Assembly: GCA_019429405.1 (NCBI GenBank)
Contig: JAHYIZ010000001.1
Coordinates: 44,035 to 108,034, forward strand
Direction: 5' to 3'
DNA length: 64,000 nucleotides
DNA from: Paracoccaceae bacterium
Lineage (GTDB): Bacteria; Pseudomonadota; Alphaproteobacteria; Rhodobacterales; Rhodobacteraceae
Below are positions 15,110 through 63,438 of this stretch, piece after piece. Below the pieces are notes generated by a model. That model did not search any database. It saw nothing but the letters and a program-made list of their open reading frames with translations, and had not been told where the DNA came from. The stretch's first letter is position 1; every line of letters starts with the position of its first letter. A program made the translations under genes and the position numbers.

Positions 15110-15979
15110 TTAGCTGTCGGCCTGCAACCTTTCGGTTACCGCGCGCATCTGCTGGTCGAGCCAGACGCGGCCCGCATCCACCCATGCGACATATTGCGAA
15201 AGCGCCGGCTCCAGCGTGGGCAGGCGCGACGATATCGACGGGGCAAAAGCGTAAAGCGCTACAGCGACCGCCGCGAGAAGAACCACCGACATGAAGCCCA
15301 AGCGGAACCCCGCACGCTTGCGTGCCCGCGATTCGGGTGCGTCGCGTGACGCGGGGGCGCTGCCACGTTCCGAGGTGGCGCGCAGGGTCGAATTGATGAC
15401 CTCGATATCAGGAAGCCGGTCGCGCCGCGCGCCATTGGCGGGTTCGGCATCGGTCGTGTCAGGCCGCAGGCGGGCACTGGTCTCGGTCGCCGGGGCTTCG
15501 GGCGGCGGCGCAACGGCGGCGGCACGGGCTGCAAGTGCGGCGGGTATTTGTTCCAGCCCGAGGTCTGGCTGGGTTTCGAGCCCGCGGCCTTCGGCGCGGC
15601 GCGCCCGTGCCTCGCGCTCGGCTTCCTCGCGCAGGATAGTCAGCAGGTTTTCGTCGAGCATGCGCCGGGTGGCGTCGGATTCGAACGGTTCGCCGTCATC
15701 GTCGGCCAGATCCTCAAGGTTGATCGGCACGGCATCAGATGGCGCATCGGGGGGGTGCCGGTGTGGCTCTGCCGCGACTTGCGGCAGCGCATCACCCCAT
15801 TCCTCTGCGCTGGGAAGGCTGTCCAGTGTTTCGGCCGCAGTGCTTTCGGGCACGAAATCAGCGCCTGGCTGAAACCAGATGTGACCGCAAGAGGAACATT
15901 GAACATCGCGCCCGCCACCCGGAATGACGCTGTCATCCACCTCGTATTGCGCGTCGCAGTTCGGGCAAATCAGCCGCAT
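15110..15979 (-). CDS. MJ0042-type zinc-ribbon protein with C-terminal TM anchor
   Basis: ORF 15110..16111 trimmed to MRLICPNCDAQYEV...CSSCGH (CxxC...CxxC). It has an acidic/Ala-Pro-rich linker and one TM helix near the C-terminus. Confidence 0.7.
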   Translation of the reverse strand: MRLICPNCDAQYEVDDSVIPGGGRDVQCSSCGHIWFQPGADFVPESTAAETLDSLPSAEEWGDALPQVAAEPHRHPPDAPSDAVPINLEDLADDDGEPFESDATRRMLDENLLTILREEAEREARARRAEGRGLETQPDLGLEQIPAALAARAAAVAPPPEAPATETSARLRPDTTDAEPANGARRDRLPDIEVINSTLRATSERGSAPASRDAPESRARKRAGFRLGFMSVVLLAAVAVALYAFAPSISSRLPTLEPALSQYVAWVDAGRVWLDQQMRAVTERLQADS

Positions 15980-55015: not shown

Positions 55016-55155
55016 AGGCTAGCGCCGCCGCCCGCCCCCCGCAACCGAAAGCGGTGGCGCGAGAACGCGGATTTCGGTAGCTTTTCGAGCGACGGCTCTG
55101 GAAACACGCGGTTGCGCACACCAGATTGTGAAGGTCTTTAACATTGGAGGCAGGG

Positions 55156-56232
55156 ATGCCGAGTTTTGAGGCGCAGATCGAGGAAAGCCAGAAGCAGGTG
55201 GCCGAAACCCAGGCCCGCATGGCCGCGCTGACGTCGCGGATCGAGTCGGCGCGGGTGAAAGCCGAGGCCGGGCAGGACATTACTCTGGATATCGAAAACG
55301 CGACGCTGGCCGATGTGCAGGCGCATGCCGACCTGATGAACGCCAACATCGCCGAGCTGATCATGGGGCTAGACGATGTGACCGCGGGCTTTTCGCGCGA
55401 TTTCGACCAGATGCGCTCCAAGACCGGCTGGGAAAGCTTTGTTGGTGTGTTCGCGCGCGGCAAATCCGAAGCGATGCGGCAGGAACGCCTGCGCAGCGCC
55501 AGTATTGACGCCAAGCTGCAAGACCTGATCGGCAAGTCAGACGTGATCGTGCGGCTGCTGGAAGGCCAACTTGCCGAGTTGAACACGCAAAAGGCGCGCG
55601 TCGAAAGCAACCTGACCGATACGCTGGCTGACCGCGAGGCGACTGTGGCCGCGCTCGAAGGTGTGCGCGCCGAGATCGCGGCGCTTGACCCCAAGATCAT
55701 TGAGCTTGAAAACCGCATCGCGGTCGAACAAGACGCGGCAGCCCGCACCCGGCTGGAAACGGAACTGGCCGATTTGAACGTGCGTCACAACGCGTTGGTG
55801 CAGGACGAACAGGTGAAACTGGCCAAAAGCCAGACGCTGGAACGCTACATCGAAAAGGGCAAGACCTGGGTGGACAGTCTGCAAAATCAGGCCGCCACGC
55901 AGATGGTGCTGATCAACAAGCTGCAGACCGACACCAAGCAGCGGGTCGTGCTTTACGACGCGCTGACCAAAAGCTTGAAGACCGCGCAGCAGCAGGACGT
56001 GGCGCACCGCATCAACGAAATCGGCGTGCAGACCGATCAAGAGGCGCAGACCGCAATGGCGGGCATTGGTGCGGCCACCAACCAGCGCATGGCCGAAATG
56101 CTGGAAGCCCACGAGGGGCATATGGTTTTCGCCCGCAAGGTGCTGGAACAAAAGGCCAAGGCCGACGAACGCTTTGCCCGTCGCTTTGCCGCGATTGTCG
56201 AGAAACACGACAAGAACCTCTATGGCGGCTGA
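55156..56232 (+). CDS. coiled-coil protein, possibly TelA/YaaN-like (system gene A)
   Basis: GGAGG at 55146-55150, then the ATG at 55156. 358 aa, all-helical with heptad-rich sequence and no TM helix. The TelA-like call is low-confidence and from memory. Confidence 0.7.
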   Translation: MPSFEAQIEESQKQVAETQARMAALTSRIESARVKAEAGQDITLDIENATLADVQAHADLMNANIAELIMGLDDVTAGFSRDFDQMRSKTGWESFVGVFARGKSEAMRQERLRSASIDAKLQDLIGKSDVIVRLLEGQLAELNTQKARVESNLTDTLADREATVAALEGVRAEIAALDPKIIELENRIAVEQDAAARTRLETELADLNVRHNALVQDEQVKLAKSQTLERYIEKGKTWVDSLQNQAATQMVLINKLQTDTKQRVVLYDALTKSLKTAQQQDVAHRINEIGVQTDQEAQTAMAGIGAATNQRMAEMLEAHEGHMVFARKVLEQKAKADERFARRFAAIVEKHDKNLYGG

Positions 56233-57352
56233 ACTGGACCTGACCCGCGACCACAAGCGGCTGGAGGATGACCTTGCCGCGCGGCGCTATTTTGCCAAGT
56301 TTGACCGCATCACCCGACTACTGGTCGCTGTCGCGGGCGCGATGGAGGCCGACCGCACGCTGAGCCGCCTCGATACCGGCGTGCTTTCGGGCTATGTGAA
56401 CGCGATTGCCGCCAGCTTTCGCGCGCTGTCGCTCAAATACCTGATTTCGGGCCGGATCGGCGGGTTGCTGGCAAAGCATCTGACCATTGATCTGCATGAA
56501 AGCGGCTTTCCGATCTATCAGGAGCTGGCGACCATGGCCAACGATGCCGCGCAGGCCACGCAGCATCTGCGCGGCATGGCCGAGGCCGAGGCGCTGAAAG
56601 ACGAGATGCTGCGCGAGATCCTCGGCCAGCGCGCGCTGCCGACCAAACTGCAATATGCCCTGAGTCAACGGCTCTATTACGAGGCTTTGGGCAAAGGCGG
56701 CCTGTTCTGGCCGCAGATGCACCCTTCGGCGCAATGGCTGGCCGACCTTCCCAAGGGGCGGCGCAGCTATTTGCTGCACTGGGCGGTTTATGACAGCCAG
56801 TTGAACGTGCCTGTGGTCTATTTGCTGGAGGCCGAAGACAGCGGCCGCAAGGCGCTGCCGCTTGATCAGGGGCGCTGGCCGCAGGTGCAGGCGCATCTGC
56901 TGGCACAATCGGTGGGCGGGTTGAAGCTGGTCACGATTGCCAAGGGGCTGGATGCCGATTTCGACAACCTGCACCCCAAACGGCTGCGCCGCATCCACCT
57001 CGGCCCGATGTATTCGAGCGCCTACACATTGCAAACCGGACCGATCCGCGAAGTGCTGGAAGACGCCCGCGCCCCCGAGGGTGAGGATTGGGCCTTGGCC
57101 TGGGCGCTGGAGGAGCTGGAAAGCGAGCGCGTCGAGGTGGATAAGGGCTGGTTTTTGGAGAGTGAGCGGCAGGTGTTCCGGCTCGACCCCTTTGGCGGGC
57201 GCGGGGTCGATCTGGGGGCAACCCGGCTTGCGCGCTCGATCATCCTGCCACAGCGCCCGTTTCAGGTGTTGGCCGAAAAAGACCCCGAGGGATTTCGTGA
57301 TGTGCGCAAATTCGTGGTCGGGCGCGAGGGGCGGGTGCTGGTTTACGGTTAG
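56222..57352 (+). CDS. hypothetical protein (system gene B)
   Basis: Its ATG lies inside the last codons of gene A (ATGGCGGCTGA, 11-nt overlap). 376 aa with sensible composition and no motif recognised. Confidence 0.65.
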   Translation: MAAELDLTRDHKRLEDDLAARRYFAKFDRITRLLVAVAGAMEADRTLSRLDTGVLSGYVNAIAASFRALSLKYLISGRIGGLLAKHLTIDLHESGFPIYQELATMANDAAQATQHLRGMAEAEALKDEMLREILGQRALPTKLQYALSQRLYYEALGKGGLFWPQMHPSAQWLADLPKGRRSYLLHWAVYDSQLNVPVVYLLEAEDSGRKALPLDQGRWPQVQAHLLAQSVGGLKLVTIAKGLDADFDNLHPKRLRRIHLGPMYSSAYTLQTGPIREVLEDARAPEGEDWALAWALEELESERVEVDKGWFLESERQVFRLDPFGGRGVDLGATRLARSIILPQRPFQVLAEKDPEGFRDVRKFVVGREGRVLVYG

Positions 57353-57410
57353 GCCGGGGCAAAGCCGGGGGTTTTCCACCCCCGGACCCCCGGAGGGTAT
57401 TTGGACAAAG
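57353..57410 (+). repeat. GC-rich dispersed intergenic repeat, copy 5 (inside the operon)
   Basis: GGCCGGGGCAAAGCCGGGGGTTTTCCACCCCCGGACCCCCGGAGGGTATTTGGAC. It contains a CCGGGGG/CCCCCGG hairpin at 57365-57385. Confidence 0.6.
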
Positions 57411-57427
57411 AAGAAGCAGAGGTTTTC

Positions 57428-59362
57428 ATGAGCCTTCCGCGCGACGAGATGGAATTGAAGGAAGAGGCGATCCGGGCGCATTACGCCGCCGCCGGCGCCT
57501 TGCTGGCGGGGTTCGACCATGCCCCGAGGCTGGCGCGCGCGGTGGCGGTAGAAACGGTGGCAGAACGCTCGCCCGGCATCGGTGCGCGGCCAAGGTTTCG
57601 GTCAACCACGCCGGGGCTGGTGACCCGCTCGGTGGCGCGCCCCGAAGGGGTGCGGTTGGCCGCGCGGGTGCTGGCGGTGGGGGGCGACGATCTGCCGGGA
57701 CCCTTGCGCGCATCGGTGGTGCAGGCCTTGCGCCGGGCGCTGGCGATCGCGCTGGCGGTAGGCGAGGAATTTGCCACCGCGACCGGTCTTGCCGAGTTGA
57801 AGAAAGCCAATTTGGAAGCGCGGCTGCCGGGGCAGCGAGCGGCCGAGTTTGGCGAGTTGCTGGCCGCCGAGGCGCTGGCGGTGCTGTCTGTCTTTGCCAA
57901 TGCCACAGCGTTTCTTCTGGCACCGCAGGCGGGCGAGGTGACGGTCGAGGTAGGGGCGGTTGAGGAAGTGCTGACCGACAATGCCCCCCTCGCGTTGCAT
58001 GGCGTGTTGTGGGAGTTGGATCAGGATATCGCCGCATTCGCCAGTGACGAGGCGCGGCTGGTGGCCGCTGTTCTGGCCTATGCCGAGCAGTTGATGGAGA
58101 AGGTGCGGCTGCGCGCCGAGGCGGCGCCGCGGCTGGGGGCCTTTACCGGCGCCAACTGGCGGGTGGCTGCGGACGATTTTCCGATTGCGGGCTTTGCCCC
58201 GGCGCGCAAGGCCAAAGGCACCGTGCTGACCATGGCGTTCAAGAAGCCCAATGAGGTGGTCGGCAACCACATCGCCAAATATCAGGCGATGCGGTTGGCG
58301 AAGATGCTGATGGCTTATGATTTTGAACGCCGGATGAACCCGTTTGCCGAGATGGGCGGCTTCATCTTCACCTTCATGGGGGATGGCAAGCCCGGTACCG
58401 GCAAGACCACGCTCATTCAGATGATGGCGGGGCTGCTGAATGAGTATTGCACGGTCGCGGGCTACCCGTTCCGCTACCAGAACCTTTCCATCGACAATGT
58501 CGACAGCTATCAGGGCAAGTCGGGGCAAAACGCCAAGGCTTTCATCACATCCGTCATGGACCCTGCGGTGATCGGCTTCGGCACCGTGGATGACATCGAC
58601 CAGGTTGCGGGTAAGCGTGGCGACCGCCAGTCAAGCACCGGGCAGCAGGAAATTACCGCGGTGCTGATGGAGGCTTTTGCCGGGGCAAACACCGTGGTGC
58701 GCGGCAACTGCACCTTTGGCATGTTCTCGAACTACCCCGAGAACGTCGATGACGCGCTGCGCCAGCGCGCAGGGGCGCGGTTTCTGGTCGACGGGCCGCA
58801 GAGCCGCGAGGATTACATTGATATTCTGGCGCTGCTGTTGGGGCGCAACCACACGATCCCGCTGGGCGATCACGACCTTTACGCCGCGCAGGAAATCCGC
58901 CGCGCGGTGGCCGAAAGCTTTGAGCGCCACGGGCGGCCGCAAGAGGCGGGCTTGGTGGCGGTCTGGCAGGCGGTGGAAGGGCGGCTGGGGCGGCTTGATA
59001 CGCTGGCCAAGCTCGGGGCGTATCTGAAGGCCATTCAGGAGGCCGACCCGAGATTCACCGGCCGCGCGATCAAGAACATCACCGATGCCGTCAAGGTACG
59101 GGCGATGGATTTTGAACTGCCCGATGAATGGATGGAAAGCCCCGAGTTGTTCCTGTTCCGCGACTATGACGCCAAGCGCGCGATGATCGCCGACCTGCGC
59201 CGCCCGATCACGGTCGAGATGGTGGTGCAGGAGATCAACCGCTACGCCGACAGCGAGTTCCGCTATGCCGACAAGTCGGACGAGGCGGCGATTGAGGGTG
59301 CGGTGCGGGATATGCGGCGGATGGAAGAGGCGAAGAAAAGGTATCTGGAGGGGCGGGGGTGA
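57428..59362 (+). CDS. AAA+ ATPase (classical clade) with about 290-aa unique N-terminal domain (system gene C)
   Basis: AGAGG lies 5 nt before the ATG. Walker A GKPGTGKT (58385-58408), Walker B GFGTVDD (about 58574-58594), and a sensor-1/second region of homology MFSNYPENVDDALRQRAGARF. Confidence 0.85.
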   Translation: MSLPRDEMELKEEAIRAHYAAAGALLAGFDHAPRLARAVAVETVAERSPGIGARPRFRSTTPGLVTRSVARPEGVRLAARVLAVGGDDLPGPLRASVVQALRRALAIALAVGEEFATATGLAELKKANLEARLPGQRAAEFGELLAAEALAVLSVFANATAFLLAPQAGEVTVEVGAVEEVLTDNAPLALHGVLWELDQDIAAFASDEARLVAAVLAYAEQLMEKVRLRAEAAPRLGAFTGANWRVAADDFPIAGFAPARKAKGTVLTMAFKKPNEVVGNHIAKYQAMRLAKMLMAYDFERRMNPFAEMGGFIFTFMGDGKPGTGKTTLIQMMAGLLNEYCTVAGYPFRYQNLSIDNVDSYQGKSGQNAKAFITSVMDPAVIGFGTVDDIDQVAGKRGDRQSSTGQQEITAVLMEAFAGANTVVRGNCTFGMFSNYPENVDDALRQRAGARFLVDGPQSREDYIDILALLLGRNHTIPLGDHDLYAAQEIRRAVAESFERHGRPQEAGLVAVWQAVEGRLGRLDTLAKLGAYLKAIQEADPRFTGRAIKNITDAVKVRAMDFELPDEWMESPELFLFRDYDAKRAMIADLRRPITVEMVVQEINRYADSEFRYADKSDEAAIEGAVRDMRRMEEAKKRYLEGRG

Positions 59363-59380
59363 TGGGTCGTGTCGATTTCT

Positions 59381-59431
59381 TGCCCGGCGGCACGCCGGGC
59401 AGCGCCCGCCCCGCCCCCCAGGGCGGGCGCT
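59381..59431 (+). other. two tandem GC hairpins between genes C and D
   Basis: TGCCCGGCG-GCA-CGCCGGGCA (59381-59401) and AGCGCCCGCCC-9 nt-GGGCGGGCGCT (59401-59431). No U-run follows. Confidence 0.6.
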
Positions 59432-59492
59432 TCACGCCCACCCTCGGGCCGGGCGCTGCCCTCATTGCATTGCGGCGACGAGCGGGGAAACC

Positions 59493-60848
59493 ATGAAGCG
59501 GCTGATCGAAAAGGGCCTGATGTATGGCAACCTGATCCGCGTCGACGCCCCGGCGCTGGTGGAACGCTACAACCGCGCGCTAAAGCAGCTTGCCGGGCGC
59601 CAGACCACCCTCACCGAATTCCACATCGACCTTGCGGGGTTCAGCCCCGAGGTGGCGGATGAGCTAGGCGACGCGCTCTACCTCAACCCCAAGGGCTGCA
59701 ACCGGCAGTTCATTCTGCTGACCACCGAGCAGAAGGAAGCGCCGCTGCTGAACGCGCAGTTTTCCAACTGGCGCAGCATCCTGACCCGCTTCATCGAGGC
59801 GAACGAGGCGCAACTGTTCAGCCTGACCGCGCGCGATGCGGTGGCGGGTGAGCTGGAGGATTCCGTCTACGAGGTCGATACCCCCGCCCGGCTTTTCGAT
59901 TTCAACCGCATCACAGTGATCGCCGATACCACCGGCGCGCATGTGGCCGAGGCGGCCAAGCTTGCCACCCTGATTGAGCGGTTCCGGCGTGAGCCCGATG
60001 CCTGGTGGGATGATGTGCTCATCGCGCAAATGATCGGCCTCGCCAAGAAAACCGGCGATGTTACGCGCCAGCCGGTGGTGCTGGGGTCTACCAGTTTCGA
60101 GACGCCCGATTTCTGGACCGCGCATTTCGGCGGGGTTTACCTCTTTCGCTCGGTCGAGCACCCGGCGGCAATCTCGGTCGGGCCGCGCGAGGGCTTGGGT
60201 ACGCTGCCCATTCGCCACGTCTTCGACCTGAGCCAGTGCAACGAGGTGGCGAAGTTTCTCGAAATCAATGGGCTGGCCGAACCCATCGTGCGGGCGCGCG
60301 GCACCGATGCTGGCGCGATCTTGCGGCAGAAGATGGATTTCATTCTGGTCGAGGCGGCGACGCAGTTGGGCCTGACCACCGGCGAGGGCACCACGCGGGC
60401 CGCCTTGCGCGCGGTGGCGCAGACCCTGGGCGCGCGGTTGCCGCAAGAGTTTCAGGGCCTTGCGGCGCTGTTGCGCTGGGTCGAGGCGGGCGGGCCGTGG
60501 CCCAAGCTCGACAGCCGCCATCCGGCCTACTTCTACAGCCTGCGCGCCACGCAGGGGCAAAACCGCGACCTTGTGAACATGCTGCTGGCCGAGCTTGCGC
60601 CGCTTGACGTGCGCCAGCTCTTCATCTGCCACAAAGAGCTTTACTATCGCCTCTACGCCACATGGCCCGAGGCCAAGCGCGCCTATGTGGCCGATTTTCT
60701 CGCCCGCGAATATCAGATAGACAAGGCAGGGGCGCGGGCGCAGCTTTTCGGCCCCGAGCCGGGCATGGCAGATGCGGCGCCCAAACCCGCGCTCGATGTG
60801 GTGGCGCTGGCTGGGCCTTGGGGCGCCGTGGGCAGGAGGCGCAAATGA
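59493..60848 (+). CDS. hypothetical protein (system gene D)
   Basis: ORF 59265..60848 trimmed to MKRLIEKGLMYGN, which avoids a 98-nt overlap with gene C. 451 aa with no motif recognised and no TM helix. Confidence 0.65.
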   Translation: MKRLIEKGLMYGNLIRVDAPALVERYNRALKQLAGRQTTLTEFHIDLAGFSPEVADELGDALYLNPKGCNRQFILLTTEQKEAPLLNAQFSNWRSILTRFIEANEAQLFSLTARDAVAGELEDSVYEVDTPARLFDFNRITVIADTTGAHVAEAAKLATLIERFRREPDAWWDDVLIAQMIGLAKKTGDVTRQPVVLGSTSFETPDFWTAHFGGVYLFRSVEHPAAISVGPREGLGTLPIRHVFDLSQCNEVAKFLEINGLAEPIVRARGTDAGAILRQKMDFILVEAATQLGLTTGEGTTRAALRAVAQTLGARLPQEFQGLAALLRWVEAGGPWPKLDSRHPAYFYSLRATQGQNRDLVNMLLAELAPLDVRQLFICHKELYYRLYATWPEAKRAYVADFLAREYQIDKAGARAQLFGPEPGMADAAPKPALDVVALAGPWGAVGRRRK

Positions 60849-61117
60849 TGGGACTGATCCGGGTTTTCCTTTTTGCAGCGCTCGGCCTGACCGTGGTTTA
60901 CTGGCTGCTGGCCATCTATTCCCGCTCGACCGAGCGCGAGCGGCTGGAAAAGAAATGGGATGCCGGCCCGCCCGAGGGCGCGCCCGACCGTGATGCCTTT
61001 ATCGAGGCGGGCATGGCAAAATACGAACGCAGCCTTCGGCGCAAGCTGATCTGGCTGGTCTACATCGTTCCGCTGACGGTGGTGGCGATCATCATCTACT
61101 TCGTGAACGTGCAATAG
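60845..61117 (+). CDS. two-TM miniprotein (system gene E)
   Basis: ATGA overlap with gene D. 90 aa with hydrophobic helices at about residues 4-25 and 67-86, flanking a charged loop. Confidence 0.6.
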   Translation: MMGLIRVFLFAALGLTVVYWLLAIYSRSTERERLEKKWDAGPPEGAPDRDAFIEAGMAKYERSLRRKLIWLVYIVPLTVVAIIIYFVNVQ

Positions 61118-61126
61118 GAGGTGCCG

Positions 61127-61804
61127 ATGTGGCGCTACATCAAATGGGGATTTCGCATCACCGTAGTGCTCGCGGTGTTTCTGTTCCTGCATTATACGCT
61201 GCCGCAGCACTCGATCGTGCGGGTTACCGGAACCTTCAACCGGTTGACCACCGTCGGCGCCAACTCCATGTTCTACGCCTCGCCTGACGCCGGCACCGCC
61301 GAGGGCACGCTGACCCGAGACATCCGCTTTATCGAAACCGTGCGCGCGAATGACAAGGTGATCGTCTTTCGCAACGAGGATACCGGGCTGATCTGGCCGC
61401 CCTACTTCAAATACGACAGCTCGAACCTGCAAGCCGAGGCGGGCAACCTGCGGTCGGACAAGGCCAACCCGCAGTGGGTCTCGGTCACGCATTACGGCTG
61501 GCGGGTGCCGTTTCTTTCGATCTACCCGAACGCGGTGGCGGTGAAGGCGGTGGCAGGGCCGGATGTGCGGATCATCCCTTGGGTCAATATCGTGGTGCTG
61601 ACCTTCCTTGCGATAGCGGCGCTGATGGTGCGGCGGATGTGGCTGCAATTTCGGGAACGGATGCTCGACCCGGTGGCGCAAGACGTGGCCGAGGCCTGGG
61701 ACGAGGTCGAGGACCGGGGCGAGGCGGTGGCGGGCAGGGCGCGCGGCATTTGGGGGCGGTTCATAGACTGGCTGGGCACCTTCCGGGGCAAGCCGAGGCG
61801 CTAG
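61127..61804 (+). CDS. DUF1523-like bitopic membrane protein (system gene F)
   Basis: AGGAGG (61116-61121) overlaps the gene E stop; the ATG is at 61127. An N-terminal TM helix (ITVVLAVFLFL), a roughly 130-aa beta-rich domain, a second TM helix (IVVLTFLAIAALMV) and a charged tail. Confidence 0.7.
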   Translation: MWRYIKWGFRITVVLAVFLFLHYTLPQHSIVRVTGTFNRLTTVGANSMFYASPDAGTAEGTLTRDIRFIETVRANDKVIVFRNEDTGLIWPPYFKYDSSNLQAEAGNLRSDKANPQWVSVTHYGWRVPFLSIYPNAVAVKAVAGPDVRIIPWVNIVVLTFLAIAALMVRRMWLQFRERMLDPVAQDVAEAWDEVEDRGEAVAGRARGIWGRFIDWLGTFRGKPRR

Positions 61805-61972: not shown

Positions 61973-62452
61973 ATGGCGAGCGCAAAGAACTCGATCTGCA
62001 TCTGGTATGACACCGAGGCCGAAGCCGCCGCGCGCTTTTACGCCGCGACCTTTCCCGACAGCGCGGTGACAGCGGTCCGCCGCGCGCCAAGCGACTTCCC
62101 GTCGGGCAAGGCTGGCGATGTGCTGACGGTCGAATTCACGGTTGCGGGCATTCCTTGCATCGGGCTGAACGGCGGGCCCGGGTTCGCGCAAAGCGAGGCC
62201 TTTTCGTTCCAGATCGCCACCGATGACCAGCACGAAACCGACCGCTACTGGAATGCCATCGTCGGCAACGGCGGAAGGGAAAGCGCCTGCGGCTGGTGCA
62301 AAGACAGGTGGGGCATCTCATGGCAGATCACCCCACGCGCGCTGACCGAGGCCATGGCTGCCGGTGGCGATGAGGCCCGACGCGCGTTCGAGGCGATGAT
62401 GAAGATGGGAAAGATCGACGTCGCCAAGATTGAGGCGGCGCGAAGGGGATGA
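61973..62452 (+). CDS. VOC-superfamily protein (PhnB / 3-demethylubiquinone-9 methyltransferase-like domain)
   Basis: Trimmed to MASAKNSICIWYD. Contains FYAATFPDS...GLNGGP...FSFQI and CGWCKDRWGISWQI. Confidence 0.75.
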   Translation: MASAKNSICIWYDTEAEAAARFYAATFPDSAVTAVRRAPSDFPSGKAGDVLTVEFTVAGIPCIGLNGGPGFAQSEAFSFQIATDDQHETDRYWNAIVGNGGRESACGWCKDRWGISWQITPRALTEAMAAGGDEARRAFEAMMKMGKIDVAKIEAARRG

Positions 62453-62481
62453 TGTGGGGCGGGGAGGAAGGCCAAACATTC

Positions 62482-63438
62482 ATGCCCGTCTACCTGGACC
62501 AGAATGTGCTTAGTCGGTTGCAGCCAAAATCCCTTGGGCGCGACTCCCTCTTGGACTCCCTTCGTGAAATGGCCAAGAGCGGCGCGGTCTACGTCTATTC
62601 CTTTGTGCATGTCGCGGAAAGTCGGGCTTCGGGGCGGGCGGAAGTTTTCGCGGCAATCTTGGACGAAATCGATGCCTGCTTTCTTGAGCCCAAAAGCATG
62701 AATGACGCCGAGGTGACTCTTTCCCGATGCCGTGCGCGAGAAATGCTGCTTGCGGAGCATGGGTTCCTTGATGATGCAGTGCGAGGGATGGAAGTAATGC
62801 TCAAGCTGATCCAGTTTGCGCTTGGTTGGCTGGGGGAGTTGGAAGAACGGGTGCTGCTGGACGAGTTGCAGGCCGAAATCAACTCTGTTTGGGCGTCTTT
62901 GGGACGTGAACTGCCGGAGTCATGGAGGGCGAAGTTGGAGCCAGCTTGGCACGAGATGTCAGATACCATTCAAGGTCTCCCACTTCATCAACTTCGCGCC
63001 GAAGGCCGGGCTGAGCAGCGTTCGCTTCGAGGATTGCTGCCAAATAACTACGCACAGCTTGACGAAAAACCCTCTGAAACGGCGGCGTCCTTCATTTTCG
63101 CGCGATTGGACGAGAACGAGCGGAGGAAGATCCAGGAGGTCTTTCCGCTCGGGTTCTGGTCAGAAATCGAAAAGCGCGAGGATGGGCTTCTGGCCGGATT
63201 CTCCTTTATGCTCTTCATCCACGGGCTTGTCAGGGACAGGCGGACGAGAGCGAAAGGGCGTGATCGCCGCGAGAAGCATTTTCTTGGACAGTTTCGTGAT
63301 TGCCAGCACATAGAAGCTGCGACCTGCTGCAGAGCTTTTGTGACTTTTGATAGCGGGGCGGCGAGATTGGCAAAGGCAGCGTATGCCTACGCCGGAGCAA
63401 CCACCGAGGTCATTCATCTGACAAGTCAAAATCCATGA
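62482..63438 (+). CDS. orphan protein with PIN-like terminal signatures
   Basis: GGAGGAAGG lies upstream of the ATG at 62482. 318 aa with N-terminal VYLDQNVLS and C-terminal H..AA.C.AFVTFD (63337-63351). The lines I counted are 55-58% GC. Confidence 0.5.
   Translation: MPVYLDQNVLSRLQPKSLGRDSLLDSLREMAKSGAVYVYSFVHVAESRASGRAEVFAAILDEIDACFLEPKSMNDAEVTLSRCRAREMLLAEHGFLDDAVRGMEVMLKLIQFALGWLGELEERVLLDELQAEINSVWASLGRELPESWRAKLEPAWHEMSDTIQGLPLHQLRAEGRAEQRSLRGLLPNNYAQLDEKPSETAASFIFARLDENERRKIQEVFPLGFWSEIEKREDGLLAGFSFMLFIHGLVRDRRTRAKGRDRREKHFLGQFRDCQHIEAATCCRAFVTFDSGAARLAKAAYAYAGATTEVIHLTSQNP

Follow-up and report, generated by a model that had tools for sequence, protein, structure and literature searches.

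A cluster of six genes, here called A to F, lies in a 64,000-nucleotide (nt) stretch of DNA (hereafter the window) from a Paracoccaceae bacterium (contig JAHYIZ010000001.1). The six are real, conserved and vertically inherited genes, and their A-B-C(-D) core travels together across Rhodobacterales, Rhizobiaceae and giant Vibrio plasmids. Their products match no characterised system, as the first-pass annotation of this DNA had stated: in Pfam, NCBIfam and PADLOC only an AAA domain, DUF6638 and DUF1523 could be assigned. The reading that we prefer, with a probability of roughly 0.4, is that the AAA+ ATPase C would remodel the helical protein A at the inner membrane and so help to maintain the membrane or envelope; B and D would act as adaptors, and E/F or a DUF2333 protein would provide the anchors.

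Two conserved gene blocks in Rhodobacterales

All six + strand open reading frames (ORFs) were confirmed on the window sequence (Table 1). Direct reading of the junctions likewise bore out a GGAGG at 55146–55150 upstream of A, an 11-nt overlap between A and B (ATGGCGGCTGA), an ATGA overlap between D and E, and an AGGAGG that overlaps the stop codon of E, 9 nt before the start of F. B and C are separated by 75 nt, and C and D by 130 nt. The cluster had been described as a six-gene translationally coupled operon with tight junctions throughout; this holds at A/B, D/E and E/F, and we limit coupling to these junctions because the B/C and C/D gaps are not tight. Hairpins in the two gaps, considered as intrinsic terminators, were rejected: they are rich in guanine and cytosine (GC) and lack T-runs, and their folding does not surpass that of shuffled sequence.

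Table 1 Features of the cluster and of related loci (L numbers are our handles for related loci)
Feature	Position or record	Strand	Description
Gene A	55156–56232	+	358 aa; ORF
Gene B	56222–57352	+	376 aa; ORF
Gene C	57428–59362	+	644 aa; ORF
Gene D	59493–60848	+	451 aa; ORF
Gene E	60845–61117	+	90 aa; ORF
Gene F	61127–61804	+	225 aa; ORF
AAA domain of C	58385–58786	+	residues 320–453; Pfam envelope, motif columns in alignments
C-D intergenic region	59363–59492	.	130 nt, GC-rich hairpins; short form of variable insertion site
Degenerate palindrome copy TGTGAAGGTCTTTAACA	55127–55143	+	sole relaxed-pattern match in the 64-kb window
C-D gap insertion examples	L018 7447–8004; L037 7498–8004; L058 3215–3817; L166 10426–10965; L091 6060–6464		
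L090	NZ_CP062152.1, V. parahaemolyticus plasmid pVP-19-VB00998, 882 kb		A-B-C-D; same type in L081, L082 and L084

We compared the neighbourhood in two collections of related loci. A scan with D, keeping one genome per species, yielded 80 Rhodobacterales loci on which the six proteins were placed by tblastn, and a metagenome scan with C yielded 80 further loci, dominated by Rhodobacterales. The comparison confirmed that the six genes co-occur in the same order across Rhodobacterales. D, E and F are adjacent in every genome locus (80/80), with the ATGA overlap of D and E conserved and with E and F translationally coupled to D throughout, the full order A-B-C-D-E-F is present in 54 of the 80, and A-B-C lies upstream of D-E-F wherever the contig reaches, except in L031, where D-E-F has no A-B-C upstream. 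The complete set recurs in 41 of the 80 metagenome loci; four more carry A-B-C-D-F with E undetected, L160 carries A-B-C-D followed by 6.7 kb of sequence without E-F, and in L166 about 8 kb downstream of A-B-C is free of D-E-F and holds a DUF559 gene, cydDC-like ABC genes and cydA instead. All other metagenome loci are cut by contig ends. A seeming fusion of E and F in L045 was rejected, as a stop codon separates the two genes.

Gene spacing in the genome loci sets the C-D gap apart from the other junctions. The median distance is -4 nt from D to E (at most 30 nt in 80/80), 11.5 nt from E to F, 62 nt from A to B and 69 nt from B to C, against about 700 nt from C to D, where 56 of 64 loci have at least 300 nt. 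This gap holds a small multi-transmembrane protein (~120–155 aa) in 18 loci and, directly after C, a DUF559-type (Vsr-like) endonuclease gene in at least 14 Rhodobacterales loci, with other genes elsewhere. The DUF559 gene also follows C in L166 and in Sinorhizobium meliloti, where the IS4-family insertion sequence (IS) ISRm16 adjoins it. The C-D gap is an insertion hotspot in most relatives. Because it is large and variable there, the compact arrangement of the window is best described as a short form of two blocks, A-B-C and D-E-F, and a single six-gene operon overstates the case; the blocks are split altogether in L031 and L166.

Typical identities of the window proteins to the 80 genome loci are ~78% for A, ~74% for C, ~65% for D, ~58% for B, ~55% for F and ~50% for E. 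The closest relatives of A, in Phaeovulum and other Paracoccaceae, are 80–97% identical, A is 75–97% identical across Rhodobacterales genera, and relatives of B reach 70–92%. The cluster has a GC content of 0.61–0.67, similar to its flanks, and the M20 peptidase gene upstream of A in the window is a syntenic flank in Rhodobacterales. With gene order kept across the order and composition matching the surroundings, the earlier judgement that the cluster is lineage-conserved and was not recently acquired stands.

C is a plausible threading ATPase with an unusual Walker B motif

C is a divergent member of the classical AAA ATPases. Its assignment to the AAA+ proteins was upheld by Pfam (AAA, PF00004; residues 320–453, E 6e-12, score 46.6 bits, cut-off 21.2). 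This single AAA domain is preceded by a poorly conserved N-terminal region of ~300 aa and followed by ~180 strongly conserved C-terminal residues. We aligned 19 C sequences from lineages that are 40–50% identical to one another. Walker A (G318–T328, including K326), sensor 1 (N435), the arginine fingers (R445 and R447), sensor 2 (R546) and the aromatic pore loop (Y or F at 361, Q362, G363) are invariant among them, and Walker B reads D388 D389, that is DD and never DE, in 19/19. With this set of motifs C looks like a classical AAA+ ring of the substrate-threading kind whose catalytic acid is unusual.

Among solved structures, C is closest in sequence to the Yme1, fidgetin-like 1, Vps4 and katanin ATPase domains (E 5e-6 to 1e-2), and a search of the Protein Data Bank (PDB) with the C family profile returned nothing at E<=1e-3. 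We consider C a plausible threading ATPase because its motifs are invariant across lineages and the solved proteins closest to it are classical AAA proteins that thread their substrates. A Vps4-type identity, which the first reading of the sequence had entertained, was not borne out: no MIT or Vps4_C domain is detectable in C, where Pfam finds the AAA domain only.

A, B and D represent cytoplasmic families without recognised relatives

A has no match in Pfam, NCBIfam or PADLOC, no relative in a PDB sequence-profile search and no transmembrane (TM) segment by hydropathy. It is a cytoplasmic, all-helical protein with a long central hairpin and represents a new family without a Pfam model. Its helical nature, read earlier from heptad repeats, is supported by an AlphaFold2 (AF2) model built on a diverse 44-sequence alignment, which is helical throughout at a mean predicted local distance difference test (pLDDT) score of 68. 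After ~115 residues of helices the model shows a hairpin (H117–190/H194–284, pLDDT 83–97) with arms of ~75–90 residues. Residues 283–330 are modelled with low confidence yet are highly conserved.

Foldseek comparison of this model with the PDB gave weak matches only, to helical bundles of the ClyA family (E ~1e-3, TM-score 0.25–0.5, root-mean-square deviation (rmsd) >10 Å). Such similarity is expected of any long helical hairpin. The ClyA proteins (SmhB, AhlB/C, MakA, NheA, XaxB) do resemble A in being elongated bundles of ~330–350 residues with long antiparallel helices; A, however, has neither their hydrophobic head nor a beta-tongue or TM segment, and it is encoded beside a cytoplasmic ATPase. 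A ClyA-like toxin was rejected as an identity for A, given best TM-scores of 0.43–0.50, an rmsd of ~12 Å and the lack of any hydrophobic segment.

B is likewise a cytoplasmic protein of a new family, with no match in Pfam, NCBIfam, PADLOC or PHROG, no relative in a PDB profile search and no TM segment by hydropathy. It lies immediately upstream of C wherever that stretch is on the contig (in distant loci L081–L084, L086, L088–L091, L096 and L097), the one exception being L097, where an opposite-strand ORF stands between them.

D had been thought to lack any nameable motif. It in fact matches DUF6638 (PF20343) over almost its whole length (E 1e-214, 713 bits, residues 10–448 on model positions 1–439); the family itself is uncharacterised, so that this much of the earlier statement remains. 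The AF2 model of D (pLDDT 72, predicted TM-score 0.66) has a mixed alpha/beta N-terminal half and a helical C-terminal half. It has no structural neighbour in Foldseek (best E 0.23 in the PDB and 0.09 in BFVD), no sequence relative in a PDB profile search and no TM segment by hydropathy. By eye, the motifs IDLxxSGFP and HIDLAGFSPE suggested that B and D might be paralogues, an idea rejected at an hhalign probability of 0.1%.

E, F and DUF2333 proteins are predicted inner-membrane partners

Hydropathy confirmed E as a two-TM protein, with helices at residues 7–25 and 69–87; it has no significant match in Pfam, NCBIfam or PADLOC. The loop of ~43 aa between the helices is predicted to be cytoplasmic because it is rich in Lys and Arg, and E is predicted to be an inner-membrane protein. 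E homologues adjoin F in L083, L085, L088, L096 and Paracoccus.

F, which had been called DUF1523-like, belongs to DUF1523 (PF07509; E 1e-65, 221 bits, residues 4–176 on model positions 3–176). It has a basic N-terminus, a first TM helix at 7–25, a domain of ~120 aa, a second TM helix at 149–167 and a charged tail of ~58 aa (hydropathy). In the predicted topology F is an inner-membrane protein, its domain periplasmic and its tail cytoplasmic; variants of F that carry an extra N-terminal TM helix and basic loop are consistent with an N-in orientation. The DUF2333 proteins that take the place of E-F in other lineages have one or two N-terminal TM helices.

The core recurs in distant bacteria with changing membrane partners

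For context we surveyed distant members of the A family (25–48% identity) together with annotated records. HMMER at E<=1e-3 recovered 290 A cluster representatives among 1.84 billion proteins, and the family is therefore narrow. A profile search with distant D sequences found mainly Rhizobiaceae (Ensifer/Sinorhizobium, Shinella, Pararhizobium and Rhizobium) and Vibrio parahaemolyticus. Window proteins are 43% (A), 31% (B), 53% (C) and 32% (D) identical to those of S. meliloti, and 37%, 31%, 41% and 25% identical, in the same order, to those of the Vibrio plasmid.

The gene orders are diverse. S. meliloti has tdk-A-B-C-[DUF559+IS]-D-DUF2333-fhs, in which tdk and fhs are the syntenic flanks in Rhizobiaceae, and L086 has A-B-C-D-DUF2333. 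E-F-type arrangements are A-B-C-D-dynamin-E-F (L083), A-B-C-E-F-dynamin (L096) and A-B-C-2TM-F (L088), while L097 has A-B, one opposite-strand ORF, and C-D-3TM. A keeps a membrane neighbour where B, C and D are absent, as A-DUF2333 in L087 and L095 and as A-2TM-E-F in L085. On a ~0.88-Mb V. parahaemolyticus plasmid and on similar low-GC contigs the order is u1-A-B-C-D-mfd. Flanking the core in this type are a large RNase H family gene, the conserved ~280–300-aa protein u1 and the locus's own mfd; the ~0.9-Mb Vibrio plasmids are labelled "non-mobilizable", and the similar metagenomic contigs are low in GC and rich in ORFans.

The dynamin-like GTPase, which has a hydrophobic hairpin (Dynamin_N, E 6.5e-13), is encoded at 15647–17023 in L083 and at 15345–16025 in L096. 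The two proteins are 60% identical, and their loci have GC contents of 0.25 and 0.60. The gene is found neither in the window nor in almost all other loci, and the GTPase is an accessory and not a core part. At least six separate architectures, on backgrounds of 25–61% GC, place a membrane gene of E-F type or DUF2333 beside A or A-B-C. The position of E-F is elsewhere filled by another membrane protein (DUF2333 or other multi-TM proteins), a dynamin-like GTPase joins E-F twice, and in loci that lack B, C and D the A gene still adjoins E-F or DUF2333. The membrane theme of the first-pass annotation gained independent support here, in that distant A-B-C(-D) cores adjoin E and F, DUF2333 or the dynamin-like GTPase.

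E and F also occur away from the core. On Paracoccus ferrooxidans pFER4 (L092, 7297–9621) the M20 peptidase gene known from upstream of A in the window is directly followed by E and F with A-D absent at the site, as if the cytoplasmic module had been cleanly lost or relocated. On the Pseudomonas sp. plasmid pNY11382-IMP (L093, 5965–7602) a DUF1523 gene adjoins a TerD/vWA-TerF-like gene, a neighbour that may point to a part for DUF1523 proteins in further stress-type modules; such megaplasmids are ~0.5 Mb in size. A 361-aa protein upstream of DUF1523 on the Pseudomonas megaplasmid was considered as an A homologue and rejected.

These loci bear on an alternative in which the cluster would be two unrelated neighbouring units, a soluble AAA+ chaperone or remodeller, A-B-C(-D), acting on a cytoplasmic client, and an independent envelope pair, E-F. 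We consider it unlikely. It would account for the solitary E-F pair that accompanies this M20 peptidase gene in Paracoccus, for the F genes of Pasteurella and of Pseudomonas megaplasmids, whose surroundings are unrelated, for A-D without E-F in the Vibrio-type loci, and for the large, variable C-D gap with its blocks split in L031 and L166. Yet D, the companion of A-B-C in distant lineages, shares an ATGA overlap with E in 80/80 Rhodobacterales loci, E-F-type or DUF2333 genes recur by A or A-B-C in at least six architectures, and A keeps its membrane partner in loci without B, C and D.

The presence of the core on ~0.9-Mb Vibrio plasmids and on several ORFan-rich, low-GC metagenomic contigs would also fit an ATPase-driven anti-phage or inter-replicon conflict system of giant plasmids, later fixed in some chromosomes; the anti-phage possibility had already been raised from the window alone. 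A DUF559 endonuclease gene and other variable genes inside the cluster point the same way, as does a weak PADLOC match of C to TRIP13 (E 3e-5); C also has a weak match to IetA (E 2e-3). TRIP13 is a single-ring AAA+ protein that remodels a partner protein, and the match to it recalls the TRIP13/Pch2-HORMA modules of CBASS. Both matches, however, cover the generic ATPase core only, the cluster has no CD-NTase, HORMA or effector gene, and its inheritance is vertical and chromosomal. Beyond weak TRIP13 no significant PADLOC model was found for the six proteins, no effector domain (nuclease, protease, TIR or pore) was recognised, and a search of 2.9 million IMG/VR viral contigs yielded no relative of C. 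The cluster keeps its place in the genome, and its divergence follows the taxonomy across two large alphaproteobacterial groups. The inserted genes are variable passengers that the window lacks. This leaves conflict an improbable role for the cluster.

A similarly slim chance attaches to a role in replicon or nucleoid maintenance on large replicons (segregation, condensation or repair-coupled remodelling), with A as an SMC-like coiled coil and C as motor. Several neighbours act in DNA metabolism: mfd follows D directly in four loci, an RNase H family gene lies upstream, tdk is present in Rhizobiaceae, and PIF1 and RuvA genes occur as well. Very large plasmids carry the core, and one source labels an A homologue "chromosome segregation ATPase". 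In PHROGs, A weakly matches an SbcC-like coiled coil, and the other matches there are to generic ATPases. Both labels for A, however, follow from a generic coiled-coil composition, the loci with mfd form a single lineage and count once, no DNA-binding domain was detected in A-D, and the most recurrent partners are membrane proteins.

A dedicated palindrome precedes A

A palindrome, TGT[AT]A-N7-T[AT]ACA, precedes A in 57 of 107 Rhodobacterales-type loci (drawn from L001–L080 and L098–L177) and in none of the shuffled controls. Its typical form is GATGTAA-N7-TTACATC, followed by a CCTATAT-like element. Across 1.94 Mb of related loci, 58 of 58 matches lie within 150 nt upstream of A and none upstream of D; the window itself has a degenerate copy (Table 1). 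The palindrome is probably an operator that controls the A promoter in Rhodobacterales. Distant lineages have near-consensus TTGACA/TATAAT promoters upstream of A instead. Known motifs (EcfG, RpoH, CtrA, LexA, FnrL and the sigma-70 consensus) were each found upstream of A in 0–3 of the 107 loci. A sigma-32-type promoter, our first impression of this region, was displaced by the palindrome.

Downstream of the cluster, a lower-GC stretch (~0.56) encodes a 329-aa ORF at 62449–63438 (+) that has no counterpart in the related loci checked by tblastn; a 159-aa ORF at 61973–62452 is common only to L006 among those loci.

Comparison with known membrane-remodelling systems

In outline the cluster recalls ESCRT-III/Vps4 and the archaeal CdvB/CdvC pair: a helical-hairpin protein is encoded with a single-domain, classical-clade AAA+ protein carrying an aromatic pore loop, both have genomic ties to membrane proteins, and the thread-and-recycle logic that we propose below is the same. 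However, A has no detectable homology to Snf7, PspA or Vipp1, C has no MIT or Vps4_C domain and carries a DD Walker B, and nothing in ESCRT-III/Vps4 corresponds to B and D (DUF6638), both of which look obligatory here. The ESCRT-III fold begins with an N-terminal alpha1-alpha2 hairpin, followed by shorter helices. It was rejected for A, whose hairpin (117–284) is central and follows ~115 helical residues in a medium-confidence model.

Bacterial PspA/Vipp1 envelope-stress systems, which include PspA-AAA+ and band-7/flotillin neighbourhoods (PMC11237479), share with the cluster a cytoplasmic helical effector, small membrane partners and, in some cases, an associated AAA+ ATPase. They differ in that the cluster has no PspA_IM30, PspB/C, Toastrack or LiaI/F; on the membrane side it has DUF1523, DUF2333 and an unnamed 2-TM protein. 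A further resemblance is a Band_7 gene ~1 kb upstream of the cluster in L083.

The first-pass annotation had named PspA/Vipp1, ESCRT-III and TelA as possible relatives of A. That the cluster is a highly diverged true member of the PspA/Vipp1/ESCRT-III and Vps4 superfamily, or of TelA type, is a reading that we disfavour and hold to be very improbable. The shared outline of helical hairpin protein, classical-clade AAA protein and membrane partners speaks for it, as do the presence of Vps4 among the weak PDB sequence matches of C and the documented association of PspA with AAA+ proteins in bacteria (PMC11237479). Against this, none of 44 A family members matched PspA_IM30 or Snf7 even at E<=1, and neither A nor those members matched TelA (PF05816). 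An hhalign comparison of the A profile with E. coli PspA, whose sequence was validated against 4WHE and Vipp1 entries, gave a probability of 1.1%, and no PspA, Vipp1, Snf7 or CHMP structure was among the top 50 Foldseek PDB matches of A. The central hairpin of A and the lack of MIT and Vps4_C in C count against it too. A TelA kinship was also considered for B and rejected: 2 of 24 B homologues gave marginal matches (E ~0.09) that were not reproduced in 10 further homologues. The cluster resembles ESCRT-III/Vps4 or PspA-AAA+ pairings in outline, falls outside both, and adds two unrelated core proteins.

Bacterial dynamin-like systems (of BDLP, DynA or LeoA type) offer a further comparison, since a Dynamin_N GTPase lies beside E-F in two very different genomes, an association that points to membrane remodelling. 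The window and almost all loci, in contrast, lack a dynamin gene.

Discussion

In the machine that we propose, A would be the working scaffold or client on the cytoplasmic face of the inner membrane, where E would offer its cytoplasmic loop and F its tail as docking sites; DUF2333 would take this part in other lineages. C would form a ring whose aromatic pore loop threads A, leading to disassembly, recycling or reshaping of A or of A assemblies. B, the near-constant neighbour of C, and D may couple C to A and to the membrane module, as adaptors or regulators. Such a machine would serve to maintain or remodel the inner membrane or envelope. In Rhodobacterales a regulator bound at the dedicated palindrome would control expression from the A promoter.

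Several observations weigh against this proposal. The model of A is of medium confidence (mean pLDDT 68), and no amphipathic or hydrophobic membrane-binding element is detectable in A. The DD Walker B implies that ATP turnover by C may be slow or regulatory. The model of D has no structural neighbour, and "adaptors" is therefore a placeholder label for B and D. In genomic terms, the Vibrio-plasmid type has no adjoining membrane partner, with mfd after D; E-F also exists without A-D, as M20-E-F in Paracoccus; Pasteurella and Pseudomonas megaplasmids have F in other settings; and A-B-C and D-E-F are not adjacent in L031 and L166.

A more far-reaching version of the proposal, which we hold to be possible if rather doubtful, is that A-D would constitute a new class of ATP-driven membrane-remodelling or repair machinery, without evolutionary relation to ESCRT-III/Vps4. 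The anchors by which A would assemble on the inner membrane (E with DUF1523, DUF2333 or dynamin-like) would be interchangeable, and a DD-Walker-B C ring together with novel-fold B and D would recycle A. Such a machinery would be ancestral to two major alphaproteobacterial orders and giant plasmids would have carried it to Vibrio.

In the literature searched we found no paper that mentions DUF6638 and few that mention DUF1523 or DUF2333, none of which gives a function; papers on Vibrio megaplasmids held nothing functional on the cluster. Three of the four cytoplasmic proteins belong to families without a recognised relative, a matching fold or a publication. The cluster is worth following because its orthologues sit in tractable model bacteria. 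The AAA+ motifs of C suggest trap mutants, and the dedicated palindrome offers a way to the regulator and, through it, to the inducing signal.

Rhodobacterales are abundant marine and freshwater bacteria, and the cluster is core-like both in this order and in Rhizobiaceae, including the genetic model S. meliloti. That ~0.9-Mb Vibrio plasmids carry it prompts one to ask how it benefits very large replicons. If our proposal is true, the cluster would represent a second, independently evolved solution to the ATP-driven remodelling of a membrane-associated helical scaffold, and it would give functions to DUF6638, DUF1523 and DUF2333.

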